Below, in pieces: positions 20,844 to 63,612 of a stretch of 64,000 nt of DNA (position 1 is its first letter; each line of letters starts with the position of its first letter). The translations under genes were made by a program, and so were the position numbers. A model generated the notes under the pieces. That model made no database searches. It had not been told where the DNA came from and worked only from the letters and a program-made list of their open reading frames with translations. The DNA is from an uncultured virus (IMG/VR IMGVR_UViG_3300030117_005941) (lineage: Duplodnaviria > Heunggongvirae > Uroviricota > Caudoviricetes), in IMG/VR virus record IMGVR_UViG_3300030117_005941, positions 1-64,000 of that record; one strand, written 5' to 3'.

Positions 20844-20894
20844 TTTTTAGTTATTTAATAGTTAATAAATGTAGACACCTGAGATGAACAGGTA

Positions 20895-20906: not shown

Positions 20907-20913
20907 TTAAAAA

Positions 20914-21093
20914 TTATGACTTAGGATACAAGTATGTGAAAGAAATAGTAAAAAATAAAAACCCAAAAGATACTATCATTGCAGGTTCCCACTTCTTAAC
21001 AAACTGTACCTCACATTGTTGCACGTATATTCCTAATAAAGGTGATTCTGAAAGCATCTCAATTCCAAAAGTAAATCTTTTCATATTTGTCAT
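20914..21093 (-). CDS. Hypothetical 59-aa protein with hydrophobic C-terminus
   Basis: MTNMKRFTFGIEML...IVSFGFLFFTISFTYLYPKS*; ATG start with A-rich leader, co-oriented with nrdJ. Confidence 0.6.
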   Translation of the reverse strand: MTNMKRFTFGIEMLSESPLLGIYVQQCEVQFVKKWEPAMIVSFGFLFFTISFTYLYPKS

Positions 21094-21115
21094 TTTTAAT
21101 TGGTTATATTTTTTT

Positions 21116-21127
21116 GTATATTATAAT
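21116..21127 (+). promoter_or_regulatory. Block A promoter-like motif GTATATTATAAT in a divergent intergenic region
   Basis: Preceded by a T-tract; identical copy at 22435; the core TATTATAATA is palindromic. Confidence 0.55.
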
Positions 21128-21156
21128 AGTATACAAATATAAAAAAAATAAATACT

Positions 21157-21468
21157 ATGGCAAATTCACCTTCAGGATTAAATGCAGATCCTAAATTTAA
21201 AATGATGATTGATGTCTTAAGAGACACAATGATACAAGGTTATGCTAAACAAGGAGCAACTTTTATCAATGATACAGCTCAACATACAGCAGGATATTAT
21301 GCAATACAAGGAATAAATTCTGCAAAATTAGATGTTAGTGATTGTGCTTTTGGTTCTGGCATGACAGACTTTGATGCAGATTTTACTATACCAAATGGAA
21401 CAATTATATATGGAAACTTTAATACAGTAAGTTTAGAAAGTGGTTCATGTATAGCTTATAAAAAATAA
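21157..21468 (+). CDS. Hypothetical small beta-rich protein, probably structural
   Basis: 103-aa ORF tightly coupled to the downstream lectin-like gene. Confidence 0.6.
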   Translation: MANSPSGLNADPKFKMMIDVLRDTMIQGYAKQGATFINDTAQHTAGYYAIQGINSAKLDVSDCAFGSGMTDFDADFTIPNGTIIYGNFNTVSLESGSCIAYKK

Positions 21469-22720: not shown

Positions 22721-23128
22721 ATGGCAACAATTACAGCACAATTAAAATTAGATAGTGCAGCCGGAAGTTTATTAACTTCTGTATTAGCTATTGATGATAC
22801 AGCAACATTAACTAAGTTGGGAACTTCAGATGGTTTGGAAGATACAACTGGTTTAGCTAGAAGAACATTTGCAGCAGCAACAGAAACTCAACTATTGGCA
22901 GCTGCTAGTTATACAGATACAAAAGCTCATAAGTTATATATAAAGAATACAGATACCGGTCATACTACGCAAGTAGAAATAACTCTTGGTACTATAGGGG
23001 GATCTAAAAGTTTAGGTTTTTTAGATCCAGATGATTGGGCTTTTATACCTTGGCAAGGAACTGAAGATATAAATGTAAAATGTACATCTGCAACTACACA
23101 GGTTGAATGGATGTTAATTTTTGAATAA
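22721..23128 (+). CDS. Small paralogue family member 1 (MATITAQ type)
   Basis: Shares MAT(I/L)TAQ, Y(I/L)KN and WAF.PW with the next two ORFs. Confidence 0.75.
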   Translation: MATITAQLKLDSAAGSLLTSVLAIDDTATLTKLGTSDGLEDTTGLARRTFAAATETQLLAAASYTDTKAHKLYIKNTDTGHTTQVEITLGTIGGSKSLGFLDPDDWAFIPWQGTEDINVKCTSATTQVEWMLIFE

Positions 23129-23145: not shown

Positions 23146-23511
23146 ATGGCAACTTTAACCGCGCAAACTAAACTAACATGTTCAGGAATAAATTCTGATG
23201 ATATGGCACTAGATGTTACAATGACTCCAACTGTAGCAGCAGGAGGTATTATTAGTAAAACTATTGATGTTAGATCAGGAGCAGCAGTAGAAATTTTGTA
23301 TGAAACACATTATGATGCTGGTGCAATAATTTATTTAAAGAATACAAGCAGCAGTGAAACTGCATATATAGAAACAAATGGTGGACATGCTTCTATAGTT
23401 TTAAGTGCAGGTCAATGGGCAGTATTTCCTTGGAATGCTGTTTCACATGATTTAAAAGCATATTCTTCTGCTAGTTTAGTATTAGAGATAGGAGTATTTT
23501 CCGCAACATAA
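23146..23511 (+). CDS. Small paralogue family member 2
   Basis: MATLTAQ...YLKN...GQWAVFPW...LEIGVFSAT. Confidence 0.75.
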   Translation: MATLTAQTKLTCSGINSDDMALDVTMTPTVAAGGIISKTIDVRSGAAVEILYETHYDAGAIIYLKNTSSSETAYIETNGGHASIVLSAGQWAVFPWNAVSHDLKAYSSASLVLEIGVFSAT

Positions 23512-23536: not shown

Positions 23537-23908
23537 ATGGCATCAACATTAACAGCACAAGTAAAAATAGATATTTCAGGAATAACTTCTGATCCTATTT
23601 CTGTAGATAAAACTTTAACTGCAACTAACATAGTAGCTGGAGGTATAAAAAGTAGATCAATTAATGATACTTCAGCAGCAGGAGAAACAGTAATAAGTTC
23701 TGGTGATTATAATGCAGGAACCATGGTTTATCTAAGAAATGCACATGCTTCAGAAACAATTTTTATAGAGTTATCAGCTAGTACAACAACTATACCTTTA
23801 GCAGCAGGTCAATGGGCTTTTTTCCCTTGGCAAGCAGGTGTTAGTTTAAAAGCGCATGCAGCAGCTAATACACCTATATTAGAGTGGGGAATATTTTCAG
23901 CAACATAG
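23537..23908 (+). CDS. Small paralogue family member 3
   Basis: MASTLTAQ...YLRN...GQWAFFPW...LEWGIFSAT. Confidence 0.75.
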   Translation: MASTLTAQVKIDISGITSDPISVDKTLTATNIVAGGIKSRSINDTSAAGETVISSGDYNAGTMVYLRNAHASETIFIELSASTTTIPLAAGQWAFFPWQAGVSLKAHAAANTPILEWGIFSAT

Positions 23909-23911
23909 ATT

Positions 23912-24196
23912 ATGGCAAAAGAACTATCAGAAGATTCAAAGTTTGAGATAAGTCTAAAGACACTTGGTGGAATAGGTTTTCTAATTACTACGCTAGTAAG
24001 TATGTGGTTTGTATTACAAGCAGATATTGCTGAAGCTAAAGAGTTACCAGCTCCTCCTGATCCTGAAGTTACTAGGATGGAGTTTCAGATGAAAGATGAG
24101 AACATAAGACTATCAATTAAAAACACAGAAGAGAATGTAAAAAAATTGGAAGATAGACTTATAAGGATAGAGGATAAAATAGATGACATGAAATGA
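23912..24196 (+). CDS. Membrane protein, single TM plus coiled coil
   Basis: TM LGGIGFLITTLVSMWFVL, Pro-rich linker, heptad C-terminus; ATGA overlap with the next gene. Confidence 0.65.
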   Translation: MAKELSEDSKFEISLKTLGGIGFLITTLVSMWFVLQADIAEAKELPAPPDPEVTRMEFQMKDENIRLSIKNTEENVKKLEDRLIRIEDKIDDMK

Positions 24197-24558
24197 AATG
24201 GATAGTTTTAATATGCCTAATGTTTTGTTATATATGCACTGGTCAACAGATGTTAACAGACAAAACATTTAGTGATAGCCAAGAGGGTGTAGCAGTTGTA
24301 GAGTTTTGGGCAGATTGGAATGCAAAAAATGAATGTACTTGGTTAGAGGATATAGAGGATGCAGATGTATATAGAATAGATCTTAATACAAATGCTGCTA
24401 AAGAAAACAAGATAACAGTACTACCAACTGTTATAGTATTTGATGATGGTGAAGAGGTTGAAAGATTTGAAGGAGATATATCTTTTAGTTTATGTCCAGA
24501 TAAAACACCTAAAAAAGTACAAAAAGAGATTAACGAATTAATATTAGATAAATTTTAA
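24193..24558 (+). CDS. Exported thioredoxin-fold protein without CxxC
   Basis: Signal-like N-terminus; VVEFWADWN in place of WCxxC; ITVLPTVIVF..GEEVERFEG cis-Pro region. Confidence 0.75.
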   Translation: MKWIVLICLMFCYICTGQQMLTDKTFSDSQEGVAVVEFWADWNAKNECTWLEDIEDADVYRIDLNTNAAKENKITVLPTVIVFDDGEEVERFEGDISFSLCPDKTPKKVQKEINELILDKF

Positions 24559-24675: not shown

Positions 24676-25041
24676 ATGGCAACTTTAACAAGTATATTAC
24701 AACTTTCAACAAGTGGTGTGGCTAAAGATGGTGTGAATATAACCTATTCTAACATAGCTAATGTTAAAAATCCTGCTATTCAAACTAGTACAGCAACTGT
24801 TGCAACAGGTGGTGATACAGATATTGTTACTCCTGCTTCTGATGCAGCAGCATATGTATATGTATGCAATAAAGATGCAACTAATTTTGTAAAGGTAAAA
24901 TTAGGAGGTAATGAATTGCTAAGAGTGGGTCCAGGAGAGGCTAACTTATTTTGTGTACACAGCAATAATGCATGTGCACTAAGAGCTGACACTGCTGAAT
25001 GCAAAGTTGAATTCGGATACTGGACATTTGACAAGTATTAA
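24676..25041 (+). CDS. Small paralogue family member 4 (MATLTS type)
   Basis: MATLTSILQLSTSG...IANVKNPA...N.DATNF...GPGE..FCVH...VEFGYWT. Confidence 0.75.
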   Translation: MATLTSILQLSTSGVAKDGVNITYSNIANVKNPAIQTSTATVATGGDTDIVTPASDAAAYVYVCNKDATNFVKVKLGGNELLRVGPGEANLFCVHSNNACALRADTAECKVEFGYWTFDKY

Positions 25042-25060
25042 TAAAAAATAATTATAAGAA

Positions 25061-25432
25061 ATGGGAACTTTAACAAGTGTAATTCAATTATCAACTTCTG
25101 GTATAGCAACGGATAGAGCAAGATTTAGTACATCTAAAATAGCTAACGTAAAAAATCCTGCTACACAAACAGGAGCTTTATCTATATCAACTATTACTAC
25201 AATAGCTACAGCACCTTCTGGAGCTACAGCTAGTGATGGTTTATATATGTATATACATAACACAGATGCAACTAACTTTTTAGTTGTAACATTTGGTTCT
25301 ACTAGCACCTTAAAGATTGGACCTGGAGAAACTAGTTTCTTCTGTGTTCATGACGGTATACTCGTAAAAGGTACTGCTAGTGCTGGAACTGTGAAGATAG
25401 AGTATGGTACTTGGACTTTAAGCAAATACTAA
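25061..25432 (+). CDS. Small paralogue family member 5
   Basis: Close paralogue of 24676..25041. Confidence 0.75.
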   Translation: MGTLTSVIQLSTSGIATDRARFSTSKIANVKNPATQTGALSISTITTIATAPSGATASDGLYMYIHNTDATNFLVVTFGSTSTLKIGPGETSFFCVHDGILVKGTASAGTVKIEYGTWTLSKY

Positions 25433-25436: not shown

Positions 25437-28400
25437 ATGAATAAATTTATACAAATATTAATTATATTTGTATTAGCCCCTTCTCTCTTGTTTTCACAAG
25501 AGTCTTGGATACATATACAATTGCAAACAGATCAGTATCCTAGTGAAACATCATGGGAGTTGTATGATATTAGTGGTGCTGCAATAGCTGTAAATGAACC
25601 GTTCTTATTACCAGAATTTTTACATGATACTGTAATAAGTATACCAGCAGGTGAATACATTATATCATTAAATGATACTTATGGTGATGGATTAGCTGGA
25701 TCTTTTTGGGGTGGCAATAACGGATGGTTTTCAATAAGCAACGCTTGTCAAGATAGTTTAATGTATGTAGAGGGTGCTTTTTACGAAGATTCACTACTAA
25801 CAACAGAACCTAGTGGACCAATATCTTTAGTAGATACTTTAACAATAGCACCTTGTGCTCCCCCTTTACAAGGTTGTACAGATGAATTAGCAGAAAACTT
25901 TAATGAAGATGCCTTAATTAATGATGGTAGTTGTACATATGTTTACGGATGTATAAATGAGTTTGCGTTTAATTATAATCCACTTGCAGCAGATATACCA
26001 ACAGGTATTATAACACCAGGTTCAACATGCAACTTGGTATCCTTTACTAATACTCACTTTGGAGTTGACCCCGAATTTTATTTACAATATCAAGATATTC
26101 TACAAATTGGTGCAAGAATATATGTTGGTGATAATGGACAGCAATGGTTTATAGATGCTGTGGCTTTTGATGGTGGAGGTTGTAATTCACCTACAACATT
26201 AATCTATGTAGTATCAACACAAGCAGAAGCAGATGGAAACCCTAATACAAATACTCCAGGTGTAAATGTAAATGCTGTAGTAGGAGAAACATGGCAGGTA
26301 GATCCTTGTATTTTTATTTATGGATGTACAGATCCAAATGCACTAAACTATAATGAAGAAGCAGGTATTGATGATGGATCTTGTATTAACATACCAGGTT
26401 GTACAGACCCAGAAGCAGCTAGTTATAACCCTGCAGCAACTACAGACGATGGTTCATGTAATGGAGGAGATATAACATGTACACCAGGTAAAACTTTAGT
26501 TACAGTTGAAATAATGGTAGATCAGTATGGTTGTGAAACTAGTTGGATAATATATGATCAGTATGGTGATGGAACACCTTTAGCAGAAGTAAATGATAAC
26601 ACAACGTATTGTGGTGTGCCAGTAGGTACTACAGTAGAATATCAAACTTGTATTGATGACAATACTAACATAATGTTTTGGTTACAAGACTCATATGGAG
26701 ATGGTCTTGGTGGAGCTCAATGGGGTGGTATAGATGGTACTTGGGCGGTATATACAGAATGTGGTGATACAATATCAGAAGGTATAGGTGATTTTGGAGA
26801 GCTTATAATTGATGTTGGTCAAGTAACACCATGTGCACCAGAGACTGTAGAAGGATGTACAAACAATGAGTATTTAGAGTTTAACCCTTATGCTAATGAA
26901 GATGACGGATCATGTGAAACAGAAAGAATATTTGGTTGTATAAATCCTGATGCTTTTAATTTTAACCCTGATGCAAATACACAACTATCAAACCCTAATT
27001 GTACAAATACATTAAGATTGACAGATTGGGCTGATAATGGTTGGGCAGGTTCATTTTTAGTAGTTACACAAGGTGATCAGTGGTGGGGACCTTTTACATT
27101 ACAAAGTGATCAGACAGTTTTTGAAACTGAAATTAATTTTAATACCAGTGAAATGGTTAAAGCTTATTTTTATTCTTTTGGTCAATCTCAACAAACAACA
27201 GAACAATGCAGCTTTGAAATAATTAATCCTATAGGGGATATTATATTAGAAGGTGGAACTAACCCTTACACAAATCCAATACTCTCTTATAACCAGTATA
27301 ACTTTCTATATCAAGGTCAAGCTCTGTGTGGTAATAACTGCATTCCTAAAATTTATGGTTGTTTAGATTTAGAAGCGGTTAACTTTGACCCAATAGCAAA
27401 TACAAGCAGTAATGACTGTTATTACAATCCTGGTTGTACTGATGCAGCTTATATTGAATATTATAATTATATAGAACAAAATGCAATAGAAGCAGATTTT
27501 GATAATGGAACATGTGAAGTATATGCTATATTTGGTTGTATAGATGAAACAGCGTATAATTATAATGAACTAGCAACAGTTAATCAAGTGGCTGTTGAAG
27601 ATGAAACAGATCCTTGTATACCAACCATTTTAGGTTGTACAGACCCATTAGCATTTAACTATGATCAAGAAGCAAATACTCTAGAACCAGGATCATGTGA
27701 GCCTGTTATTAATGGTTGTACAGACTCTGCTGCGTTTAACTATGATGAAGATGCTAACACAGATAATGACTCTTGTATAGAAATAGTATACGGTTGCACA
27801 GATGATGAAGCATTTAACTATTATCCAGATGCAAATGTAGATGATGATTCTTGTGAACCGGTAATTGAAGGTTGTACACAGTCAAATCAATTTAATTACA
27901 ACGAGCTAGCTAACACAGATGATGGTTCTTGTTATCCTTTTGTATATGGTTGTTTAAATCCAAACTCTTATACATATAATGATTATGATAATGATGGTGT
28001 TGGTAATCCTATAACAGGAATAAATGGTGTAGATGTTAATACAAATAATAATTTATGTGAACCTTTTATTTATGGTTGTTTAGATGAAACAGCATTTAAC
28101 TACAATTCAGAAGCTAACACAGCAGATGAAAATAATCCATGTGAACCATTTATATATGGTTGTATGGATCCAACTCAATTCAATTATGATGTTAACGTAA
28201 ATACTGACGATGGTTCTTGTATAGAATTTGCATATGGTTGTACAGACCCAGAAGCATTTAACTATGATGAAACAGCAAATACAAATGTTGGTTGTATATC
28301 ATTTGTTTATGGTTGTACAAATCCAGACGCCTTTAATTATAACCCACAAGCTAATACAGAAGATAATAGTTGTGAAGCTGTAGTTATTGGATGTACAGAT

Positions 28401-29303
28401 TCTACAGCAAACAATTATGATGAGAATGCTAATACTAATAATGGTTGTATATATCCAGTATATGGTTGTACTGATGAGGAAGCATTTAATTATAACTCTA
28501 ATGCTAACACAGATGATGGTTCATGTATACCTTTAATTTATGGGTGTACAGATAATACAATGTTTAATTATAATTCAGAAGCAAATACTGAAAATGGTAG
28601 TTGTATAGAATTTATATATGGTTGTATGGATTCAACAGCGTTTAATTATGATCCAACAGCTAACACAGATAATAGTTCATGTATCCCCATAATTGAAGGT
28701 TGCACTGATCCAAGTGCATTTAATTATAATGCAGATGCAAATACAGAAGACTTTTCATGTATTGAAGTTGTTATAGGTTGTACAGATCCAGATGCAATAA
28801 ATTATGACCCTTTAGCAAACACAGATTCAGGAGCTTGTATAGATGTATTAACAGGTTGTACTGATGTAAATGCATATAATTATAGTTTAACAGCTAATAC
28901 AGATGACGGTTCATGTGTTTATGATGCAGGATGTAGTGGAGGACCAGGAGAACCATATTGGTTACCTAATGAATGTTTTGCATGGGTAATATCAGTAGAT
29001 GATGAATGTTGTAATGGTCAATGGGATTCATATTGTGTAGAATTATATAATTATTGTGATTTAGGTTGGCCTATTGATTTAATAGAATCTTCTTCTGAAT
29101 TATTGATTTATCCTAATCCAGTAATTGATATATTAAATATAAATCAAGAAATTGATGTAAAATTATATGATATGGTAGGAAATTTAGTAATTTCTAAAGA
29201 AAACATAACACAAATAGATATGACTAATTTACCAAGTGGTATTTACAATTTAAATATAAACCACAATAATAAAATAATAAATAATAAAATTATAAAACAA
29301 TAA
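25437..29303 (+). CDS. Secreted Cys/Asp-rich repeat protein with a T9SS type A C-terminal sorting domain
   Basis: Sec signal ending ...LLFS-QE; about 25 GCxDxxAxNYxxxANxDDGSC repeats; C-terminal LIYPNP...LYDMVGNLV...IDMTNLPSGIY...KIIKQ. Confidence 0.85.
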   Translation: MNKFIQILIIFVLAPSLLFSQESWIHIQLQTDQYPSETSWELYDISGAAIAVNEPFLLPEFLHDTVISIPAGEYIISLNDTYGDGLAGSFWGGNNGWFSISNACQDSLMYVEGAFYEDSLLTTEPSGPISLVDTLTIAPCAPPLQGCTDELAENFNEDALINDGSCTYVYGCINEFAFNYNPLAADIPTGIITPGSTCNLVSFTNTHFGVDPEFYLQYQDILQIGARIYVGDNGQQWFIDAVAFDGGGCNSPTTLIYVVSTQAEADGNPNTNTPGVNVNAVVGETWQVDPCIFIYGCTDPNALNYNEEAGIDDGSCINIPGCTDPEAASYNPAATTDDGSCNGGDITCTPGKTLVTVEIMVDQYGCETSWIIYDQYGDGTPLAEVNDNTTYCGVPVGTTVEYQTCIDDNTNIMFWLQDSYGDGLGGAQWGGIDGTWAVYTECGDTISEGIGDFGELIIDVGQVTPCAPETVEGCTNNEYLEFNPYANEDDGSCETERIFGCINPDAFNFNPDANTQLSNPNCTNTLRLTDWADNGWAGSFLVVTQGDQWWGPFTLQSDQTVFETEINFNTSEMVKAYFYSFGQSQQTTEQCSFEIINPIGDIILEGGTNPYTNPILSYNQYNFLYQGQALCGNNCIPKIYGCLDLEAVNFDPIANTSSNDCYYNPGCTDAAYIEYYNYIEQNAIEADFDNGTCEVYAIFGCIDETAYNYNELATVNQVAVEDETDPCIPTILGCTDPLAFNYDQEANTLEPGSCEPVINGCTDSAAFNYDEDANTDNDSCIEIVYGCTDDEAFNYYPDANVDDDSCEPVIEGCTQSNQFNYNELANTDDGSCYPFVYGCLNPNSYTYNDYDNDGVGNPITGINGVDVNTNNNLCEPFIYGCLDETAFNYNSEANTADENNPCEPFIYGCMDPTQFNYDVNVNTDDGSCIEFAYGCTDPEAFNYDETANTNVGCISFVYGCTNPDAFNYNPQANTEDNSCEAVVIGCTDSTANNYDENANTNNGCIYPVYGCTDEEAFNYNSNANTDDGSCIPLIYGCTDNTMFNYNSEANTENGSCIEFIYGCMDSTAFNYDPTANTDNSSCIPIIEGCTDPSAFNYNADANTEDFSCIEVVIGCTDPDAINYDPLANTDSGACIDVLTGCTDVNAYNYSLTANTDDGSCVYDAGCSGGPGEPYWLPNECFAWVISVDDECCNGQWDSYCVELYNYCDLGWPIDLIESSSELLIYPNPVIDILNINQEIDVKLYDMVGNLVISKENITQIDMTNLPSGIYNLNINHNNKIINNKIIKQ
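27340..28920 (+). repeat. Tandem array of ~25-aa Cys-rich coding repeats
   Basis: Recurrent GGTTGTA...TTTAA(C/T)TA...GC(T/A)AA(C/T)AC DNA units. Confidence 0.9.
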
Positions 29304-29322
29304 CGCCTTTTAAAATAAATAT

Positions 29323-29331
29323 ATATTTATT
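29323..29331 (+). promoter_or_regulatory. Block B promoter-like motif ATATTTAT(A/T)
   Basis: First of six intergenic copies, each shortly before a start codon. Confidence 0.55.
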
Positions 29332-29351
29332 AAGGAACAACATTATAAAAA

Positions 29352-30521
29352 ATGGCAAATAATAAACTTTACGGATATACTCCTACAACTTCAAAAGAAA
29401 AAGAAGGTAATAGATTAGACCAATATAATCCATACGAATTTAGAAAAGGTATGGATTATGAATTAACTTCTATGGGATGCATGAGACTAGCAGAATCTAC
29501 TATTGAAGAAAGAGAAAAAGCTACAGAATCTGTTCTTAAAAATTTAGAAAGTCACCCTGCTTATTATTCAGGTTTAATACAATTTGAAGCAGGAATGAAC
29601 CATGCGGGTAAAATTGATGGTAAAAATTTTAAAACTTGGCTTAAAGATCATTTTGAAGTAAATAAAATGCAAGAAATTCAAAATGGATTTGATAGAAAAA
29701 ATGTTACTTCAGATGTAAGAGCTAAAAGTTTAAAAACACCAAAATTTGATGATCAAATGACTGAACCTAAAGGATACAATAAAAAAGATTACACAACTCC
29801 TTTTGAAACAAAACCTTCTCCTTTAAAAGAAGAACAACTTAGAAAAACAATTAGAAATGAAGCTTTAAAAATTCTTAAAGAACAAGATGAAGAAGAATTT
29901 GACGCTGATGTTGATAAAGCAGATAAAGCAGCTACTAAAGCTGCTAAAAAATCAAAATCAAGTAATAGATTTGATTTAGAAAGAGAAGCAATTAAAGACT
30001 TATTATATAGAGGTAAAAAAGGAAAAGAAAGCGAATATACAGAAGAAGAACCAGCTCCTAAAAGTATTCTTGATATAAAAAATCAAATGTTAGATTTATA
30101 TAAAAATAAATTTAAAGGAAAAGAAGGAGGTGTAGATGACTATAATGCAGAACTAAAAAAAGTAAATGAAAAATTTAAAAAAATATTAGAAAAGCATGTA
30201 AAAACTTTTGGTGAAGAAGGAAAAGGTAACAATGTTACTTTAAATATTGTATATGGAGAAAAATTACCTGATACTATTAAATTGTTAGGTGCAAGACTAA
30301 AAGCTTTAGAAAAAGAAGAAGAAGAAGATATAGTATCAGCAAATGAATTAAGACGTGAAGTAGCAAAAACAGATATGACACGTGAACAACATATTAAACT
30401 TCTTGAAATAATTAAAAAACATGGTGTCTCTTTAAGAGAAGGAGCTATGGGTGTTAAGCAATATTATAATATAGCAAAAGAAGCATATTTAGAAGGTGTT
30501 GCAAACGGTTTAAAAATATAA
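29352..30521 (+). CDS. Hypothetical charged protein, probable internal head protein
   Basis: NPYEFRKGMDYEL...VLKNL..HPAYYS N-domain; LKEEQLRKTIRNEALKILKEQ motif. Confidence 0.6.
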   Translation: MANNKLYGYTPTTSKEKEGNRLDQYNPYEFRKGMDYELTSMGCMRLAESTIEEREKATESVLKNLESHPAYYSGLIQFEAGMNHAGKIDGKNFKTWLKDHFEVNKMQEIQNGFDRKNVTSDVRAKSLKTPKFDDQMTEPKGYNKKDYTTPFETKPSPLKEEQLRKTIRNEALKILKEQDEEEFDADVDKADKAATKAAKKSKSSNRFDLEREAIKDLLYRGKKGKESEYTEEEPAPKSILDIKNQMLDLYKNKFKGKEGGVDDYNAELKKVNEKFKKILEKHVKTFGEEGKGNNVTLNIVYGEKLPDTIKLLGARLKALEKEEEEDIVSANELRREVAKTDMTREQHIKLLEIIKKHGVSLREGAMGVKQYYNIAKEAYLEGVANGLKI

Positions 30522-30540
30522 AATATAAAAATAAATAGTT

Positions 30541-30690
30541 ATGAATTGGATAAATAGTTGGAGAGAAGGTAATAAAAAAAATATTGTCGACTTTACATTA
30601 AGATTTGGAGTATTAACTCTATTTGAACTTAAGTGGAATCCCGGAATTAAGTTTAGATTATTAATATTAAATTTTGGGATTGAATTATAA
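30541..30690 (+). CDS. Hypothetical 49-aa protein
   Basis: MNWINSWREGNKK...FRLLILNFGIEL*, fills the intergenic gap; not in the ORF track. Confidence 0.65.
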   Translation: MNWINSWREGNKKNIVDFTLRFGVLTLFELKWNPGIKFRLLILNFGIEL

Positions 30691-30724
30691 GACTATAAGC
30701 TAATAATATTAAAATTAAATAAAG

Positions 30725-31174
30725 ATGAATTTAACAGAATTAAAAAAAATGGTTAAAGAAGAATATAATAAATTCTTAGAACAAGATATGCCTGACATGC
30801 CTGACATGCCTCAACCATCAGCAGGTATGGAAGATCCTACAATAGCAGTATCTGACAATGACATAGATCTTGATGGAGGAGAAAATCCAGAAGATACTTT
30901 ACGTGCAATTTTTGACATGCTAAAAGATTTTTTTGAAGGAGATGATAAACCTGCTCCTAAAGCACCTAAAGCTAATAATAAAAAAGATGATGATAAAGGT
31001 GATGACAAAAAAGATGATGATAAAAAAGATGATGATAAAAAAGATGATGATAAAAAAGATGATGTCAAAGAATCATATAATAGAAAATTTAGAAGAAAAA
31101 TTTCTCCTAATAAATCTAATGATATGAAAATTTTACAAGAAAGGTTTAAAAAATTAGCTAATATTATAAAATAA
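30725..31174 (+). CDS. Acidic low-complexity protein, probable prohead scaffold or internal protein
   Basis: LTELKKMVKEE N-terminus, KKDDD repeats, LQERFKKLANI C-terminus. Confidence 0.6.
   Translation: MNLTELKKMVKEEYNKFLEQDMPDMPDMPQPSAGMEDPTIAVSDNDIDLDGGENPEDTLRAIFDMLKDFFEGDDKPAPKAPKANNKKDDDKGDDKKDDDKKDDDKKDDDKKDDVKESYNRKFRRKISPNKSNDMKILQERFKKLANIIK
30980..31063 (+). repeat. 15-bp coding tandem repeat AAAAAAGATGATGAT (KKDDD)
   Basis: About five imperfect copies visible. Confidence 0.9.
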
Positions 31175-31178
31175 TATT

Positions 31179-32420
31179 ATGACTCTTGATGAGTTATTAT
31201 TAGAATGGTCTTATAGGTCAGAAAAGGGGTATCCATCTTTGGATAGCCCTTCTGATATCTTTACTCTTAAACAAATTTTAGAAAAATTAAAATTACCTTC
31301 TAATAAAATTATTAATAATTTAAAAGAAGGTACTAAAGCATCTAATAGTAGAAATGCTATAGCTAAAATAGTAGATTCTCCTGAAGGAAAAGAATCAGGT
31401 TTAACTACTATGTCAAATGTTTATAGAGTAGGTAATCAAAAAAAGATTGATAAAGATAAATTTATGGAAATTATAATTTCTCTTTTCAATAATCCTCAAA
31501 TTACAATTCATGAACCTAAATCAGGTCCTAATAAAAGTTCAAAATATAATATGTTTGAATTTGAAACTGAAGAAGGTCAAGTACAAATAGTTTTAGCAGG
31601 TGGAGCTAATGAAGGAGAAGTTTATGAACAAGATCTTTTAACTAAAATACAAGGATCTGTTGGTTTTCCTATGGACGAAATAGAATTTCCTGATATTCAA
31701 AAATTATTTACAACTATAGGTATTGATCCTGAAGATCTTACCCCTGATGATGCTGAATTTATGGGAGCTGCAGATACAAAAAGACAATTATCATTTGAAG
31801 GACCTACAGATTTAGGATCTAAAGTAGCAGATCTTGTAATACATGCTGAACAAGATATTTATTTATCTATAAAAAATAGAAAGGGTTCTGGAATATATAA
31901 TGGAGGAAATGTTCCTTTTGTTTATTTAAATGATGAAGGTCAAGCTATATTTGATGAAAGTAAATATAATGAAAAACCATTATTTAAAGAAATATTTGAA
32001 GCTTGTGGTATTGACCCACAAAGAATGGCAGATGGTTTAAATGCTTATATTAATGGAGAAGGAGAAAAAGGAGAATGGGAACCATCATCTGGTGTAGATG
32101 TAAATAAAATAAGAAATTTACTAGCATCTTCATTTGGATATAACTATTGGTATGTAAGAGAAAAATCAGGTGGTGAAATATTTGTTCATTATATAGATGG
32201 TGAACAAGGAGCTTATGATATGGTAGGAGAATTGAATGAAAATGCAGTACAAATAAAATATCCAGGTACTACATCTAAAAATTTAGATGTAGTTATTGAA
32301 ACTAATAGTCCTGTTTTTCAACAAGATGAAGGAAAAGTACCTTTAAAATACCAAATAGTCATAAGAAACGCATCAGGTAAAATCCTTCCTGCAAGGCTTA
32401 ACATAAGAACCAATAAATAA
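31179..32420 (+). CDS. Putative PD-(D/E)xK (restriction-endonuclease-like) protein with N-terminal leader
   Basis: GEVYE helix and KVADLVI...YLSIK motif; leader LLEWSYRSEKGYP...LKEG. Confidence 0.5.
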   Translation: MTLDELLLEWSYRSEKGYPSLDSPSDIFTLKQILEKLKLPSNKIINNLKEGTKASNSRNAIAKIVDSPEGKESGLTTMSNVYRVGNQKKIDKDKFMEIIISLFNNPQITIHEPKSGPNKSSKYNMFEFETEEGQVQIVLAGGANEGEVYEQDLLTKIQGSVGFPMDEIEFPDIQKLFTTIGIDPEDLTPDDAEFMGAADTKRQLSFEGPTDLGSKVADLVIHAEQDIYLSIKNRKGSGIYNGGNVPFVYLNDEGQAIFDESKYNEKPLFKEIFEACGIDPQRMADGLNAYINGEGEKGEWEPSSGVDVNKIRNLLASSFGYNYWYVREKSGGEIFVHYIDGEQGAYDMVGELNENAVQIKYPGTTSKNLDVVIETNSPVFQQDEGKVPLKYQIVIRNASGKILPARLNIRTNK

Positions 32421-32455
32421 TTTGGTTTTTCAAAATTCCCTTATTACATATAAAT
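32421..32455 (+). promoter_or_regulatory. Possible early/middle promoter (TTTGG...TTATTACATAT)
   Basis: TTTG resembles the Bacteroidota -33 element; a similar arrangement occurs at ~55382-55412 before the primase. Confidence 0.3.
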
Positions 32456-32473
32456 TAATAAATAAAAATAATT

Positions 32474-32710
32474 ATGAAATATTCAAGACAAGTACAAGGA
32501 GCTCTTAATAGATTAGATCAAACCCTATTAGCTCTTAATAGATTAGTTAAAGAAGGCAAACAAACAGAAGCTATTCAATTTATGGAACAAGGAGCATTAA
32601 AAGATGCTTTTGAAGACTTACAAAATATAATTACAGTAGCAGGAGGACCAGGAAATACAGCAGATATGGGAGCTAGAGGTACAAATCAAGCAGGTACATT
32701 TAGAGAATAA
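32474..32710 (+). CDS. Hypothetical protein
   Basis: 78-aa ORF with A-rich leader. Confidence 0.6.
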   Translation: MKYSRQVQGALNRLDQTLLALNRLVKEGKQTEAIQFMEQGALKDAFEDLQNIITVAGGPGNTADMGARGTNQAGTFRE

Positions 32711-32724
32711 TAAAAAAATAGGTT

Positions 32725-33510
32725 ATGTTATCAGCAGAAAAAATCCAATCAAATTGGGATCGTTATATAAATGAAATAAAAACAAATATATCTAAAGAAA
32801 GATCGGATATATTATTACCTTTTTTAGAAAAATTTGAAGAACGAATAATGATGATGCCTGCAGCAGCTAAAAATTGGCACCATTCAGCATTTGCAGGTGG
32901 TTATGTTGATCATGTATTACGTGTATATGATTGCGCAAATGAATTATATAAAACGTGGAGTAAAATGGGAGGAGATATATCTACATATACAATTGAAGAA
33001 ATGCATTTCGTTGCTTTATTCCATGATTTAGGTAAAATGGGCCAACAAGAAGGTGAATACTATCAACCAAACGATTCACAATGGCATATTGATAAATTAG
33101 GTCAAATATATAAATTTAATACTGATATCCCTGCAATGAAAATACCAGAACGATCTTTATTTTTATTACAACAAATAGGATGTAAAGTATCTCAAAATGA
33201 ATATATTGGTATTAAAATACATGATGGTTTATATGATGAAAGTAATAAATTTTATTTTATGTCTAGTATGAAAGAGACTAAATTAAGATCACATTTACCT
33301 TTACTTATGCATCAAGCAGACCATATGGCAGCTCAAATTGAATTTGAAATATGGAATAATGCAACAGATGCTGTTCCTAAACAATCTAAACCTAAAAATG
33401 GTTCTAAGGGAGATAAAACAATAAGAAATGCTAAAAAAATAAATACTAAAAATAATCCGAATCTATCTAACGCTACTTTAGATGTTATAGATTCTTTTTT
33501 TAAAGATTAA
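32725..33510 (+). CDS. HD-domain phosphohydrolase
   Basis: HHSAFAGGYVDH, ALFHDLGK, IHDG, HQAD. Confidence 0.85.
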   Translation: MLSAEKIQSNWDRYINEIKTNISKERSDILLPFLEKFEERIMMMPAAAKNWHHSAFAGGYVDHVLRVYDCANELYKTWSKMGGDISTYTIEEMHFVALFHDLGKMGQQEGEYYQPNDSQWHIDKLGQIYKFNTDIPAMKIPERSLFLLQQIGCKVSQNEYIGIKIHDGLYDESNKFYFMSSMKETKLRSHLPLLMHQADHMAAQIEFEIWNNATDAVPKQSKPKNGSKGDKTIRNAKKINTKNNPNLSNATLDVIDSFFKD

Positions 33511-33513
33511 ATT

Positions 33514-33768
33514 ATGGGATGGACAATAGCAACAATAATACTTAGTATATTTACAACTGCAATGGGATTTTCTATTAGAAATTTACTTATTAAAAATGAA
33601 AAACTAGAAGATTTTATATCAAAACAAAGTGATGCTATAAATGCTTGCGATCAAAGATTAAAACAAATCGATAATAAAAATATATTTTATGCGGATGATG
33701 AAATAGGTTGGTTTTTTAAAGAATTAAAAAAAATTCAAGACGCATTAAATGAATTTACCCTTAAATAA
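33514..33768 (+). CDS. Small membrane-anchored coiled-coil protein
   Basis: N-terminal TM; FYADDEIGWFF motif. Confidence 0.65.
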   Translation: MGWTIATIILSIFTTAMGFSIRNLLIKNEKLEDFISKQSDAINACDQRLKQIDNKNIFYADDEIGWFFKELKKIQDALNEFTLK

Positions 33769-33771
33769 AAT

Positions 33772-59919: not shown

Positions 59920-62900
59920 ATGAAAAAAACAATTTTACGTAGAATTAGACAAAAAGCACATAAGTTACTAAAAGAACAAAAAATATTTGATCAAGAATAT
60001 TTTAGTAATATATTAAAACCACCAACAAGTCCTTTTGACTTAGTATCAAAAATACCAAAACCTGATAAAGATCAACCATATCCTTTTGGAAATGGAATAG
60101 CAGTCCAATGTAAAAATCAACAACCTGCCTTTGAATTATTTTATGTAGTTTGTCAAGATGGTGGAGATCTTGGACCTCAATGTGAATGTGAACAATATGA
60201 AGTAACTGCTGATTGGATTTGTTGTGATGGTGTTGACAGTTTTACAAATCCTGGATTTGTCCCTTATCCAGGTCAATCATATGCAGGTGATGATAGTCTT
60301 TATTGTATGGCAGCACCTGGTACTCCAAATACTTTTGAAAATTATAAAGAAGCTCTTTTACAAAATGCTTGGATAATAAATATTAATTTTAGTAATTGGA
60401 TAGCAGATGGTTTGCTTAATTTTCAAAGTGGACCTGGAGACATACCTGTTGTAGGAACAGGTTATTTATCTGAAGAATGTCCTGGATGTATGATAACACA
60501 ACCTGCACCTCTTTCAGGTAATAATTTAGACATAGCAAATCAACAAAATATGCCTGATAATTTATCAATGGTACATGATGGTTCATGTGTGTTTGAATGG
60601 TGTAATACTCCAGAAGCAGACAATTATTTTTGTAATTCTGAATTAGCCTCAGAAGATATAGCAGGAATAAATATTAGTTTTAGTGATTGGTGTGTTCCTA
60701 ATGAAGATGGAATTTTAGTTCTTGATACTGCTATAGGAATTGTACAAGAAGGAGAACTAACTGAATGTTATGTTGGTGGTTGTACAGATAATGGAACCTT
60801 AACTGCTGAAGTTTGGGCTGCAGAATATGCAGGAACAACTCAAACATTAGGAGATGGTACTGGTGTATTACCAGATGAATATCCAGGAATGCCTGGAGCT
60901 GATAACTATGATCCTTTAGCTACTGTAGATGATGGTTCATGTATATATGATGGAGATGAAGATGGAGTTTTCTCATTTGATGAAGTAGATGGCTGTACAG
61001 ATCCTTCAGCTTTTAATTATAATGAAAATGCATCTGAAGATGATGGTACATGTGTACCTATAATTTATGGTTGTACAGATTCATTAGCTTTTAACTTTGA
61101 TGAAGAAGCTAATACTTTATGTGAAGATCCTCCAAATCAAATTAATATAGACCTAAATGGTAATGAAGAAGAATGTATAGAATGTATAGAAAATTTAGGT
61201 GGTTGTACAGATAATAGTGCAACTAACTATAACCCTGATGCTACTTTTGATGATGATTCATGTTGTTATAATCCAGGTTGTACAGATGTAAATGCTTGTA
61301 ATTATAGTGAAGCTGCTTGTTTTGATGATGGTTCTTGTGAATATGAATCATGTTTAGGTTGTACAATAATTGGATTTAATGGTGATGCTTCAGGTATAGG
61401 TGCTTATAGTGCTGCTAACAGTACAACATTAAGTGTACCTACTATAGATTATTGTGTTTATAGTGGTTGTTTAAATAGTGAACAAAATGAAGATGGGTCA
61501 TATGTTTATGAAAATTATGTTTGTAATGGAGATTATGCTCAATTTTTGTGTACATCTATTGATATTGATGGTGATGGAGCTCCAGATTTAGGGGTCCCAA
61601 TGAGTCAAGAAAGTATAGATCAATATGGTCTTAGTATGGAACCTATAGGTATTTTTGTTGATAAAGGAACTTGTCAATTAGCTCCTGTATTAGGATGTAC
61701 AAATCCTGATGCTGAAAATTTTAATCCTGATGCAACTGAAGATGATGGTTCATGTGAATTTATTCTAGGATGTATGGAAAATACAACAGCTGATTGGAGT
61801 TTAGAACCTAATGGATTTATAGTAACTAACTACCAACCAGATGCAACTCAAAATTTTGGCTGTAATTACGTTGTTTGTTTAGATGGAAATGCTGACAACT
61901 ATGTATGTGATGCAGAAGATGGTGTACCATATCTATGTTTACAAAATACAGGAGACCCTAATCAAGATTTAGATGATGACTTTATAGATAGTATAGGTGC
62001 TACTATTGAAGATTGTAATTATAATGATCAAAATATATTTGATGCTTCAGGTACAAATACTTGTTGTTTTAACATTATTCCAGGATGTATGCAAGGAGGA
62101 AATACTATTACTAACCCAGGAAATCTTACAGCTGACAATTATGATCCAAATGCTAACGTAGAATGTGTTGATCCTCCAAACCAAGAAGATAATGACACAG
62201 GCCTTCCTTGTGAACCTTGTATATTTTCAGGATGCCCAGATCCAACAGCATGTAATAGTATAGTAGGTACTAATATGTTTGGTCTGTTAGGTTATGAAGC
62301 ATGGGTATATAATGATGATGGTTCATGTGAATATCCTGACACTTGTAATGATTGTGATGGAAATTACTTAACTGATGGATGTACTGATGAAGCAGCATGT
62401 AACTATGATCCAACAGCAGAATGTGGACCTAATGATCAACTTTGTGATTATGGTTGCTATGGTTGTACAGATGAAGCTGCTGCTAATTATGATCAACTAG
62501 CTACTATGGATGATGGTAGTTGTGAGTATGATGAAATGTGTTGGGATATAACAATAACACAATGTAATGCAGCTTATTTATCATTTGCTTATCAAATTGC
62601 TGAACTAGAAGGAACTAGAGCTCCTGGTGGTCCTGATATGTGGACAAATGTAACACTTAGATGTGTGTCTATAGGATACCCATCAGCTGCAACTGAAATT
62701 GGACCTAATGCTCCTGATGGAGAATTTGGAGGTAACCCACCTTTTGTAGATGGAACAAGCCCTAATGGTTTAGGAGAATATGTTGTTTATGAAGGTTTTA
62801 CAGCACAAATGGAAGGAGGACCTGGAGATGATTTAGGAATACCTTACGTACCAGCAGCTGTATGTCCTACTGATGCTTTACCTTTAGGTGCTAGTTTAAT

Positions 62901-63612
62901 GAATTTTAATTGGACACAATTTGATCCTAATGATTATGGTAATATAGGTCAAGGTGGTTGTTGTGTACCTGCATTAGTACATGTAGATTCTGCAGGACAT
63001 CCTAATGTTTATACAAATGCAGGTACATTGTCTGCAGGTACTAATTTTGGTGAACTTGTTCCTAATACAACTGGTCTTTCACAAGCAACAGCTGTTTGTA
63101 ATACTGAATCACCTTGTGCAATTGAGGTAGGTCCTAATAGTAACTATTATTGTAATGGAAATCCAACAACTACTATAGATTTTGATGAGGATGATTTTGA
63201 GCCAGATGATGATATAATATATAACCCACCTATTGATGAAGGATTAGTAAATGAACAAGCTGACATTCCAACAGGTCTTGGAGTATATGTTGATTATGGA
63301 GAACCTTATAGAGATGTACAATGGGGTCAGGATCCTGACGCAATTTGGAGAGTTACTAGCGTATCAGAACCTTATTCATCTACAGGAGAAGTACTTTATT
63401 TACCTACATCAACTGATGATGAATGTTATGAATACTCAATGAATGGACCATTTATGCAAGATGGTCAACCAGAGACAAGAGTTACAAGTACTAGTGATAA
63501 ATTTACAAATCCAAATAGATCTGTAAATCGCCCTATTAATAGAGATGTTCAAAGAACAATTAATGAAAGTAAAAGATTAAGAAAAGCTATTAAAAAAATA
63601 TTTAAAAAATAA
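59920..63612 (+). CDS. Cys/Asp-rich repeat protein with basic termini and no secretion signal
   Basis: About 15 GCTD..A.NY...DDGSC repeats; N-terminal LRRIRQKAHKLLKEQ, C-terminal INESKRLRKAIKKI. Confidence 0.75.
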   Translation: MKKTILRRIRQKAHKLLKEQKIFDQEYFSNILKPPTSPFDLVSKIPKPDKDQPYPFGNGIAVQCKNQQPAFELFYVVCQDGGDLGPQCECEQYEVTADWICCDGVDSFTNPGFVPYPGQSYAGDDSLYCMAAPGTPNTFENYKEALLQNAWIININFSNWIADGLLNFQSGPGDIPVVGTGYLSEECPGCMITQPAPLSGNNLDIANQQNMPDNLSMVHDGSCVFEWCNTPEADNYFCNSELASEDIAGINISFSDWCVPNEDGILVLDTAIGIVQEGELTECYVGGCTDNGTLTAEVWAAEYAGTTQTLGDGTGVLPDEYPGMPGADNYDPLATVDDGSCIYDGDEDGVFSFDEVDGCTDPSAFNYNENASEDDGTCVPIIYGCTDSLAFNFDEEANTLCEDPPNQINIDLNGNEEECIECIENLGGCTDNSATNYNPDATFDDDSCCYNPGCTDVNACNYSEAACFDDGSCEYESCLGCTIIGFNGDASGIGAYSAANSTTLSVPTIDYCVYSGCLNSEQNEDGSYVYENYVCNGDYAQFLCTSIDIDGDGAPDLGVPMSQESIDQYGLSMEPIGIFVDKGTCQLAPVLGCTNPDAENFNPDATEDDGSCEFILGCMENTTADWSLEPNGFIVTNYQPDATQNFGCNYVVCLDGNADNYVCDAEDGVPYLCLQNTGDPNQDLDDDFIDSIGATIEDCNYNDQNIFDASGTNTCCFNIIPGCMQGGNTITNPGNLTADNYDPNANVECVDPPNQEDNDTGLPCEPCIFSGCPDPTACNSIVGTNMFGLLGYEAWVYNDDGSCEYPDTCNDCDGNYLTDGCTDEAACNYDPTAECGPNDQLCDYGCYGCTDEAAANYDQLATMDDGSCEYDEMCWDITITQCNAAYLSFAYQIAELEGTRAPGGPDMWTNVTLRCVSIGYPSAATEIGPNAPDGEFGGNPPFVDGTSPNGLGEYVVYEGFTAQMEGGPGDDLGIPYVPAAVCPTDALPLGASLMNFNWTQFDPNDYGNIGQGGCCVPALVHVDSAGHPNVYTNAGTLSAGTNFGELVPNTTGLSQATAVCNTESPCAIEVGPNSNYYCNGNPTTTIDFDEDDFEPDDDIIYNPPIDEGLVNEQADIPTGLGVYVDYGEPYRDVQWGQDPDAIWRVTSVSEPYSSTGEVLYLPTSTDDECYEYSMNGPFMQDGQPETRVTSTSDKFTNPNRSVNRPINRDVQRTINESKRLRKAIKKIFKK

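Follow-up and report, generated by a model that had tools for sequence, protein, structure and literature searches.

The natural alleles behind a 1288-aa open reading frame in an uncultured phage record probably encode a phage-made cargo protein of the host type IX secretion system (T9SS). The frame lies in the window, as we term the whole 64,000-nt stretch of DNA analysed, which is part of a 73.5-kb viral record (the whole record is called G000 here). Both of its predicted export labels, a Sec-type signal peptide and a type A C-terminal sorting domain (CTD), are present and conserved across a family of phage homologues, and export via the T9SS, a route that we infer from sequence, is strongly indicated. 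The head-plus-stalk layout seen in structural models fits a binding or adhesin-like surface protein and not an enzyme. The features on which this account draws are as follows, in window coordinates unless stated otherwise.

23912..24196, + strand: neighbouring gene, 94-aa protein with one membrane helix and a coiled coil (sequence)
24193..24558, + strand: neighbouring gene, exported thioredoxin-fold protein without a CxxC active site (PF00085, 25.1 bits)
24676..25432, + strand: two of five small paralogues of 121-135 aa with MATLTAQ... starts (46% identity, E 1e-36)
25437..29303, + strand: cargo ORF, 1288 aa (ORF list and translation)
25437..25496, + strand: predicted Sec-type signal peptide, residues 1-20, with Gln21 as the new N-terminus (sequence)
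25500..25850, + strand: D1, beta-sandwich head domain, residues 22-138, with a conserved D-x-YGDG motif (AF2 model)
25869..25988, + strand: two two-cysteine repeat units as a linker, residues 145-184 (self-profile)
25989..26312, + strand: D2, small beta-barrel domain, residues 185-292 (AF2 model)
26316..26459, + strand: two two-cysteine repeat units, residues 294-341 (self-profile)
26484..26831, + strand: D3, beta-sandwich and paralogue of D1, residues 350-465 (AF2 model)
26847..26981, + strand: two two-cysteine repeat units, residues 471-515 (self-profile)
26994..27332, + strand: D4, beta-sandwich, residues 520-632 (AF2 model)
27351..28922, + strand: stalk of three units (residues 639-713) and a continuous 16-unit array (residues 731-1162) (self-profile)
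27975..28018, + strand: joint between two alleles, a 44-nt stretch on which both parents agree, inside the repeat array (sliding identity, per-base comparison)
28923..29102, + strand: Cys-rich knot with 6 Cys before the CTD, residues 1163-1222 (phage-family comparison)
29106..29300, + strand: type A T9SS C-terminal sorting domain, residues 1224-1288 (PF18962, TIGR04183)
59920..63612, + strand: ORF with the same two-cysteine units and neither signal peptide nor CTD (sequence and self-profile)
66540-69275 and 69277-70473 of G000, beyond the window: two further ORFs of two-cysteine units without an export label (self-profile)

Export labels and architecture of the cargo

The translation of the cargo gene begins with MNK, followed by a 16-residue hydrophobic run and the site S|Q; the signal peptide was called by eye from the sequence and is hence given as predicted. 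In accordance with the original prediction of a Sec signal peptide leaving Gln at the mature end, Gln21 was kept in at least 90% of 80 aligned homologues, and the pattern of hydrophobic run, small residue and Gln was repeated by 28 of the 29 viral sequences that are complete at the 5' end. The Q-rule, under which Gln follows the signal peptidase cleavage site, is described as specific to Bacteroidota (PMC5837995) and has already been reported in phage proteins (PMC10367356).

At the other end of the protein, the type A CTD that had been placed at about 29100-29300 was recovered at nt 29106-29300. TIGR04183, the match to which had been put forward as a check, scored 43.6 bits (cut-off 23) over residues 1224-1288 of 1288, that is, at the very C-terminus, PF18962 scored 45 bits (cut-off 27) over residues 1224-1286, and a CTD profile searched on the DNA gave 47.3 bits. 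Among the viral homologues, 32 of 38 exceeded the TIGR04183 cut-off, and a recognisable type A tail was missing in three family members, L022 having a degenerate tail and L025 and L033 another C-terminal end. Residues P1226, N1227, P1228, Y1244, G1248, G1268, Y1270, K1287 and Q1288 were invariant across 13 homologues. Such domains are described as conserving a Gly that opens strand beta4 and a Lys in the C-terminal motif (PMC11285876), for which G1248 and K1287, on putative strands beta4 and beta7, are candidate counterparts. Sequence searches of the PDB gave matches only at the CTD, all of them weak (7pzj, E 0.0016; 8glk_D, E 0.044). Since CTDs can be species-specific, as stated in the same source (PMC11285876), compatibility of this one with a given host is not assured.

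AlphaFold2 models of the N-terminal half (mean pLDDT 83.7 and 89.6) resolved four domains, such that the globular heads of the original prediction stood while its count of three did not. D1 and its paralogue D3 each have invariant residues in the alignment (D80, G83, D84 and G85 in D1; D418, G421, D422 and G423 in D3). Foldseek against the PDB returned only meaningless whole-chain multi-domain alignments for the 660-residue model (TM 0.05-0.11), and VIA-align over 48,161 chains reached at best Z 6.3 for this model and 6.0 for residues 345-640. No fold family is named for the head domains because these values are under the kinship level of 8. Likewise, no catalytic family or specific fold was found for the cargo with Pfam, TIGR and PHROG profiles and VIA-align, and a tblastn search of 50,697 phage records with the cargo sequence produced just one weak repeat match. 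Searching 1.84 billion representatives with D4 alone retrieved 32 clusters at E<=1e-3; the 4,276 homologues counted with the whole protein are a figure inflated by the repeats. In the ESM Atlas, D1 fell with unnamed viral and diatom clusters at 0.92, which we record as leads only.

The heads are linked and followed by a 26-aa, two-cysteine repeat (GCTDxxAxNYxxxANTDDGSC), for which Pfam held no family at E<=1. A profile built on 15 clean units detected 26 stretches, corresponding to 25 units as an insertion splits one of them, in agreement with the roughly 25 Cys repeats first noticed; they occupy residues 145-184, 294-341, 471-515, 639-713 and 731-1162, and the protein has 69 Cys in total. The tandem pattern GCxDxxAxNYxxxANxxDxSC of marine Flavobacteriales repeat proteins, for which there is no curated family, is also present in the cargo. 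Between stalk and CTD lies the Cys-rich knot, found in 35 of 38 viral loci versus 3 of the 69 best genome loci, those three all phage-like contigs; in this comparison the knot is specific to the phage family.

A record probably joined from two phages

On balance, we regard the 1288-aa ORF as written as a probable assembly chimera, in which a crAss-like contig and a myovirus contig would have been joined through 44 identical bases within the repeats of their homologous cargo genes. This reading concerns the record only, and it does not conflict with the cargo explanation for the two natural alleles. Left of the joint the gene follows L009 and L011, which are crAss-like, and right of it L013, a myovirus. 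Sliding nucleotide identity over codons 51-850 was 92-99% to L009/L011 and 46-89% to L013, and from about position 27987 to the gene end it was 97-100% to L013 and 58-88% to L009/L011; the first 150 nt of the gene shared 73-81% with L009/L011. The matching stretches thus amount to 5' 2.5 kb of one allele (from codon 51) and 3' 1.3 kb of the other. The record as a whole is crAss-like left of about 27,975, with homologues of crAss-type RNA polymerase subunits, and Immutovirus-like myovirus to the right, with a T4-type baseplate like that of Immutovirus; of five records tested, only G000 carried both markers. A 124-nt word across the joint occurred in 0 other viral contigs and 0 metagenome contigs, the record contains two 10-N scaffold gaps, and Pfam and PHROG searches recognised no terminase, portal or capsid gene in it. 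Further evidence came from a gene for an exported protein of ~350 aa (no Pfam match), which lies near the cargo gene in 32 of 42 phage loci, both parental types included. As this partner follows the cargo in L009 and precedes it in L013, a join at the cargo gene would lose exactly this gene, and tblastn over the whole 73.5 kb of G000 found no copy of it (best E 0.10).

Set against a chimera is the fact that the parental alleles, from otherwise unrelated genomes, share 81-89% nucleotide identity over the head domains (residues 200-600), and therefore natural exchange does happen at the cargo locus; phages do recombine at such repeats. Moreover, the lack of a second copy of the junction is weak evidence and no proof alone, and Logan contigs are too short to bridge the joint in either direction. 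None of the contigs from four runs spanned the joint or a boundary of the gene; in X5, the upstream piece reached 26 letters into the cargo gene, where 31 were needed. Depth in run X1 was 7.4-9.2 on the left versus 13.6 downstream, a difference too slight to draw on. Pieces were present in RNA run X19, and such pieces are no indication of transcription.

An assembly chimera is nevertheless the likely explanation, with both parental alleles intact. Since two phage types are combined in the record, the exact 1288-aa protein may not exist in nature. Database users are accordingly warned that a "100% complete" 73.5-kb viral genome is most probably two phages joined at a shared repeat gene.

Proposed role, neighbouring genes and origin

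For the natural alleles, we propose that the cargo would be made during infection of a marine flavobacterium and cross the inner membrane by Sec, with signal peptidase I cutting before Gln21 in line with the Bacteroidota Q-rule. Its ~69 cysteines would then pair in the periplasm, and the 65-residue type A CTD would pass the folded protein to the translocon of the host T9SS, after which the tail would be removed and the protein released or anchored via its new C-terminus. If anchored, it would present four heads, each a beta-sandwich or barrel, at the distal tip of a stalk built from two-cysteine modules. The relatives of the record make a host lineage with a T9SS plausible, in that its baseplate protein shares 44.6% identity, over 98% of the length, with that of Flavobacterium phage vB_FspM_immuto, a cultured phage with a small T9SS-type cargo of its own (described below). 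The closest relative in culture to the right half has Flavobacterium sp. LMO8 as its host.

What the protein does for the phage is guessed, with masking or replacement of T9SS-borne receptors, superinfection exclusion and particle attachment as examples. The roles first proposed (display or release of the protein, with receptor masking, aggregation or altered grazing) are guesses as well. One tentative picture, which we consider possible and somewhat speculative, is that the cargo is a mobile cassette traded among crAss-like podoviruses, Immutovirus-like myoviruses and a jumbo myovirus, planting a stalked binding protein on the infected cell via the host T9SS. There it could displace or mask T9SS-borne phage receptors or tether the cell to particles, and the same two-cysteine modules would be reused in non-exported, possibly virion, proteins. 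Should these proteins truly exit infected cells via the T9SS, phages of abundant marine flavobacteria would re-dress the host surface during infection, using a protein that is hypervariable and exchanged across phage families, with a bearing on phage host range, superinfection exclusion and the particle attachment of bacteria that degrade algal matter.

The genes around the cargo raise a second, unlikely role, in which it serves a lysis-linked envelope module rather than acting as an adhesin, for example by late loading or jamming of the T9SS, such that receptors stop surfacing, or by preparing the outer membrane for lysis. In 28 of 42 phage loci, a homologue of the 94-aa membrane coiled-coil protein is encoded no more than about 3 kb from the cargo gene and always adjoins the thioredoxin-fold gene, and the frequent presence of the ~350-aa exported protein nearby points the same way. 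So does a holin (phrog_3427, E 5.6e-31), homologues of which occur on 16 of the 38 cargo-bearing viral loci. A plug, however, would need less than four conserved heads and a variable stalk.

The thioredoxin-fold neighbour has a signal peptide followed by Gln and reads FNAxWNxxN where WCGPC is expected; lacking CxxC and any Cys conserved across 29 sequences, it was ruled out as a disulfide catalyst for the cargo. The cargo gene itself begins 4 nt (AAAC) after ORF 25061-25432, which belongs to the set of five paralogues, as had been claimed of a preceding phage paralogue gene. In our main reading, the cargo gene belongs to a mobile envelope module made up of the membrane coiled coil, the redox-dead exported thioredoxin fold, the ~350-aa exported protein and the cargo. 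Carriers of this module include crAss-like phages, Immutovirus-like myoviruses and a 298-kb jumbo myovirus, and hence a minimum of three phage types with no relation to one another. In G000 this four-gene set is not complete, the membrane protein and thioredoxin fold being present at 23912-24558 and the ~350-aa partner missing.

It is quite improbable that the cargo is a fibre or decoration protein of the virion that assembles in the cytoplasm, with an N-terminus that is no working signal peptide and a CTD that is a mere Ig-like module. Ig-like domains are common on virions, and the best match of D2 (Z 6.3, under the kinship level) was to small barrels from phage tail proteins. The repeat also occurs without export labels in three further ORFs of the record, which means that it is not tied to secretion; neither Pfam nor PHROGs assigned a family to 59920-63612 or 66540-69275, and PHROGs, the only profiles applied to it, gave none for 69277-70473. 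Against a virion protein stand the conservation of signal peptide plus Gln and of the CTD among the homologues, the ~33 disulfides, which would not form in the cytoplasm, and the presence of a signal peptide together with matches to 0 PHROG families, structural ones included, which sets the cargo apart from phage tail fibre and decoration proteins.

The reading as a T9SS cargo of phages also depends on the origin of the gene. Relatives of the same architecture occur on 36 of 38 viral loci, adjoining the same phage genes, and the cargo has its upstream flank in common with L009 and L011 and its downstream flank in common with L012, L013 and L014, which are separate metagenome assemblies. The phage head domains and knot were found in 32-35 of the 38 viral loci, except D2 in only nine: D1 was present in 32 versus 5 of the 69 best genome loci, D2 in 9 versus 0, D3 in 32, and D4 in 33 versus 4, the latter all phage-like contigs. 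In bacterial genomes, pattern and tblastn searches confirmed 598 stretches of the repeat, of which the 69 best loci were examined; within these, head domains or knot were confined to the phage-like contigs L049, L053, L055 and L103, plus L082, the sole bacterial protein with D1/D3-like domains, and D2, D4 and the knot appeared in none of the true bacterial loci. Compared in this way at the sequence level, the cargo DNA is phage and not bacterial, with bacterial loci otherwise having only the repeats and the tail in common. A bacterial gene misassembled into the viral scaffold, the outcome that had been named as fatal to a phage-encoded cargo, has next to no probability and is already contradicted by phage genes on both flanks in several independent assemblies and by the distribution of the head domains and knot, for all that the repeat and type A tails abound in Flavobacteriales MAGs.

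Comparison with known systems

Export of phage proteins by host machinery to the envelope of infected or lysogenic cells is familiar from T5 Llp and from lambda Lom and Bor, which are small lipoproteins or barrels exported by Sec, Lol or Bam; none of them is known to use the T9SS. Among T9SS substrates, the adhesins SprB and RemA of Flavobacterium johnsoniae share with the cargo the stalk-plus-head logic of surface adhesins. Giant secreted proteins encoded by marine Flavobacteriales (MAG loci L047-L115) follow this logic too and are filled with the same 26-aa repeat; they resemble the cargo further in their signal peptide and, in many cases, in a type A tail, but run to 1,000-6,500 aa and up to 105 units without D2, D4 or knot and have D1/D3-like domains only in L082.

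Closer to a culture-based test is immuto35A_15 of Flavobacterium phage vB_FspM_immuto_3-5A (MW353176.1), a 243-aa protein annotated as 'cohesin domain-containing protein'. Like the cargo, it has a signal peptide followed by Gln and a C-terminal PF18962 match (36.7 bits); unlike the cargo, it bears a cohesin domain (36.6 bits) and neither repeats nor heads, and the passenger part is not homologous. As this cultured relative has a small T9SS-type cargo, and T9SS mutants of F. johnsoniae exist, the export hypothesis is testable.

Phage-encoded T9SS cargo is, as an idea, not new, having been raised in the accounts of 'Cryophage' (PMC7468147) and of gut phage cluster 2 (PMC6949934). The latter (de Jonge et al. 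2019, Viruses, PMC6949934) describes ORFs with T9SS sorting domains, among them a BACON-repeat ORF with such a domain, and leaves their function open. These likewise unite tandem binding-type repeats and a T9SS sorting domain in ORFs of Bacteroidota phages, but the gut ORF consists of BACON repeats, comes from the human gut and adjoins head genes, and the cluster 2 ORFs are unrelated in sequence to both the repeat and the head domains of our cargo. The authors of the 'Cryophage' study (Bellas et al. 2020, Nat Commun, PMC7468147) reported type A cargo genes and proposed a hijack of the host T9SS. Common to both systems are phage-encoded proteins with type A sorting domains that vary strongly from one phage variant to the next. 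In that account, the cargoes are an endoglucanase, a GH39 and a PA14 protein of one glacier phage, whereas the cargo described here is no enzyme and combines a cysteine-repeat stalk with four beta-sandwich or barrel heads in marine phages of three types.

Export labels and build of the predicted cargo protein

The gene predicted to encode a phage cargo for the host type IX secretion system (T9SS) carries recognizable export labels at both ends of its product.

25437-29303, + strand: cargo ORF, 1288 residues

The protein opens with MNK, continues with 16 hydrophobic residues and reaches S|Q, in agreement with the predicted signal peptide exposing Gln at the mature end, and at least 90% of 80 aligned homologues retain this residue (Gln21). 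In 28 of the 29 viral homologues with an intact 5' end, a small residue and Gln come immediately after the hydrophobic leader. Exposure of Gln after signal-peptide cleavage is described as a Bacteroidota trait in PMC5837995 and PMC10653852, and PMC10367356 already notes it for phage proteins. The predicted type A C-terminal sorting domain (CTD) was recovered at residues 1224-1288, which passed both curated models, TIGR04183 (43.6 bits, cut-off 23) and PF18962 (45 bits, cut-off 27). TIGR04183 scored above cut-off in 32/38 viral loci, the misses being L022 (degenerate end), L025 and L033 (different C-terminal end), L043 (gene truncated at the edge of its contig), plus L045 and L046, which encode an unrelated 3,061-aa repeat protein outside the cargo family. 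In L025:9352-12198 and L033:3-2087, the type A CTD is replaced by a conserved tail (...Y/F-x-Y/F-x-D-G-S-x-x-K...) that also ends bacterial repeat-protein ORFs in L051, L060, L066, L068 and L074. This tail, possibly another sorting signal, had no match among NCBIfam or Pfam models.

Between these labels, 15 clean units served to build a profile that detected 25 copies of a two-Cys, 26-residue unit, in line with the roughly 25 anticipated from the sequence; pairs or a triplet of units separate the globular parts, and 16 units form an array at residues 731-1162. The whole protein contains 69 cysteines, including six in a 60-residue knot directly ahead of the sorting tail. Globular domains had likewise been predicted, but as three; AlphaFold2 models (alignments of 80 and 91 homologues; mean pLDDT 83.7 and 89.6) instead gave a head of four beta-sandwich or barrel domains (D1-D4; residues 22-138, 185-292, 350-465 and 520-632). 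Structure searches with the head returned generic sandwiches as best matches (Z 6.3 and 6.0), and the passenger matched no Pfam, NCBIfam or PHROG family, with no enzyme found.

The cargo start lies 4 nt past the end of ORF 25061-25432, as originally predicted; this ORF belongs to a set of five small paralogues surrounding an envelope module.

22721-23128, 23146-23511, 23537-23908, 24676-25041 and 25061-25432: small paralogues, 121-135 aa, with starts of the form MA(T)(L)T...
23912-24196: 94-aa membrane and coiled-coil protein
24193-24558: exported thioredoxin-fold protein without CxxC
59920-63612, G000 66540-69275 and G000 69277-70473 (G000 being the whole record): Cys-rich ORFs with the same two-Cys unit, 1230, 911 and 398 aa

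None of the five paralogues matched a Pfam family, and their single PHROG match was weak (25061-25432 to phrog_30535, E 5.9e-4, function not assigned); L011 and L026 have comparable genes close to their cargo. The membrane coiled-coil and thioredoxin-fold genes stand side by side and adjoin the cargo in 28/42 phage loci. The thioredoxin-fold protein was considered as a disulfide catalyst for the cargo and rejected, because the CxxC site is lost in all 29 sequences. The three other Cys-rich ORFs have neither signal peptide nor CTD, share short, basic, similar N- and C-ends (for example ...KLAG[LI]K...) and may be virion proteins; the first two matched neither a Pfam nor a PHROG family, and the third matched none in a scan against PHROGs. 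ORF 56371-59916 (1181 aa) contains a DUF192 domain (75 bits, residues 469-568), and a free-standing DUF192 gene occurs near the cargo in L017.

A phage family with a host stalk module

The cargo locus is phage DNA. Within the window we identified gp25-type and gp6-type baseplate proteins, a ribonucleotide reductase, a primase, a segE-type GIY-YIG endonuclease and an M15 endolysin, and the homologues expected on viral contigs were found, with a cargo-family member on 36 of the 38 loci from the IMG/VR scan. Carriers included crAss-like phages (L009, L011), Immutovirus-like myoviruses (L012, L013, L014) and L017, a 298-kb record with a gp25 gene. The L012 and L014 contigs start within the cargo gene and continue into the shared downstream genes; L013 extends to either side of it. 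The L017 record also encodes a phage lysozyme, and a complete TonB-dependent receptor gene (Plug and barrel; L017:18814-21216) is located 5 kb downstream of its cargo homologue.

The repeat unit also occurs in the hosts: a scan of prokaryotes with one genome per species confirmed 598 stretches of it, and the best 69 of these loci derived nearly all from marine Flavobacteriales MAGs. The bacterial proteins filled by the unit are secreted, with 1,000-6,500 residues and up to 105 units. Head and knot were distributed differently.

Table. Head domains and knot in viral loci and in the best 69 prokaryote genome loci
Part: viral loci; genome loci
D1: 32/38; 5/69
D2: 9/38; 0/69
D3: 32/38; 5/69
D4: 33/38; 4/69
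Knot: 35/38; 3/69

Among the genome loci with head or knot parts, L049, L055 and L103 are flanked by phage genes shared with the window, and L053 by gp32, a RecA-like ATPase, a DnaB-type helicase and ribonucleotide reductase; L082 encodes one true bacterial protein with D1/D3-like domains, beside SprB repeats. D4 alone matched only 32 clusters (E<=1e-3) among 1.84 billion representatives, and the broader total of 4,276 homologues is therefore mostly due to the repeats. The full cargo architecture is thus a phage family borrowing a host stalk module.

The cultured Flavobacterium phage immuto encodes no homologue of the cargo passenger. It does have a small cargo of its own, immuto35A_15 (243 aa), in which a signal peptide followed by Gln precedes a cohesin domain (36.6 bits) and a PF18962 match (36.7 bits), two genes downstream of an exported C-type lectin protein gene. 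The MW353176.1 annotation marks neither protein as secreted cargo.

L117:28-1026 (MW353176.1): exported C-type lectin protein
L117:2192-2923 (MW353176.1): cohesin/T9SS-CTD protein

The joint inside the cargo gene

The record, whose 73,554 bases begin with the 64-kb window, is classed as linear, and CheckV estimates its completeness at 100%, yet no terminase, portal or capsid gene was recognized anywhere in it, and two 10-N runs (7215-7224 and 16946-16955) identify it as a scaffold. In 150-nt windows over codons 51-850, the cargo gene is 92-99% identical to those of crAss-like L009 and L011 (73-81% in the first 150 nt) against 46-89% to that of L013, whereas the remainder, from about 27987 to the stop, shows 97-100% identity to L013 against 58-88% to L009 and L011. 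The allele switch falls within 44 bases (27975-28018) that are identical between L009 and L013. Flanking DNA follows the same division, with 16956-21203 tracking L009 (93.7%) and 25865-39246 tracking L013 (96.8% overall).

Gene content is similarly mixed. ORF 17031-18746 is a crAss-type RNA polymerase subunit homologue that matched 58 phage records, including crAss001 and two Cellulophaga phage records, and ORF 7246-12825 gave weak matches, again to such a subunit. Baseplate and tail genes of T4 or Immutovirus type occupy 32.7-55 kb. The gp6-type baseplate protein (38950-40845) shares 44.6% identity, across 98% of its length, with that of vB_FspM_immuto, a 160-kb myovirus whose annotated functions around this gene follow the same order. 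Among five records compared, the gp25 family was present in G000, L013, L017 and immuto and not in L011, and the crAss-type subunit in G000 and L011 only, leaving G000 as the one record with both. An exported partner of roughly 350 aa accompanies the module in 32/42 phage loci, following the cargo in L009 and preceding it in L013. Nowhere in G000 was it present, and a join at 27975-28018 would produce exactly this loss. The C-terminal residue of this partner is aromatic.

A 124-nt word across the joint was absent from all other viral contigs and from the metagenome contigs searched. We consider the record to be probably an assembly chimera of two phages, joined inside the cargo gene. The alternative is natural recombination between the two phage types, since the parental alleles, from otherwise unrelated genomes, share 81-89% nucleotide identity across residues 200-600; public contigs from four runs were too fragmented across the joint to tell the two apart. 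Whether chimera or recombinant, both parents encode an intact cargo of the same build, with signal peptide and CTD (L009, 1337 aa; L013, 1329 aa). Beyond the window, a holin (G000 70499-70891; phrog_3427, E 5.6e-31) is 77-80% identical to one found some 4 kb past the cargo in crAss-like L009-L011, reflecting either lysis genes also common to both phage types or a further join.

Putative route and role, and relation to earlier reports

Established knowledge of the pathway (PMC11285876) suggests that a protein with these conserved labels, in its phage context, would be exported by Sec, fold in the periplasm and be recognized through its CTD by the translocon, after which a PorU-type peptidase would remove the CTD and the cargo would be released or attached through its new C-terminus. 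Such C-terminal anchoring would place the head domains distally on a stalk, in an adhesin layout. This analysis neither supports nor contradicts the originally proposed roles in receptor masking, aggregation or altered grazing. As a guess, we favour masking or displacement of receptors, because flavobacterial phages frequently depend on T9SS or gliding surface proteins. Holin homologues, found at 16 of the 38 cargo-bearing viral loci, leave room for a lysis-linked role as a less likely reading.

Phage-encoded proteins with T9SS sorting domains are already known. Bellas et al. 2020 (PMC7468147) found that "Cryophage" has three variable genes with type A sorting domains and suggested that it hijacks the host T9SS, and de Jonge et al. 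2019 (PMC6949934) reported sorting-domain ORFs in gut phages, one with BACON repeats. A full-text search for phage and T9SS returned no further report and no experiment within the collection searched, beyond which further papers may exist. Relative to these systems, the new elements are the occurrence in three phage types, a head and knot specific to phages, allele exchange between phage families, a cultured handle in phage immuto and the likely chimeric state of record IMGVR_UViG_3300030117_005941.
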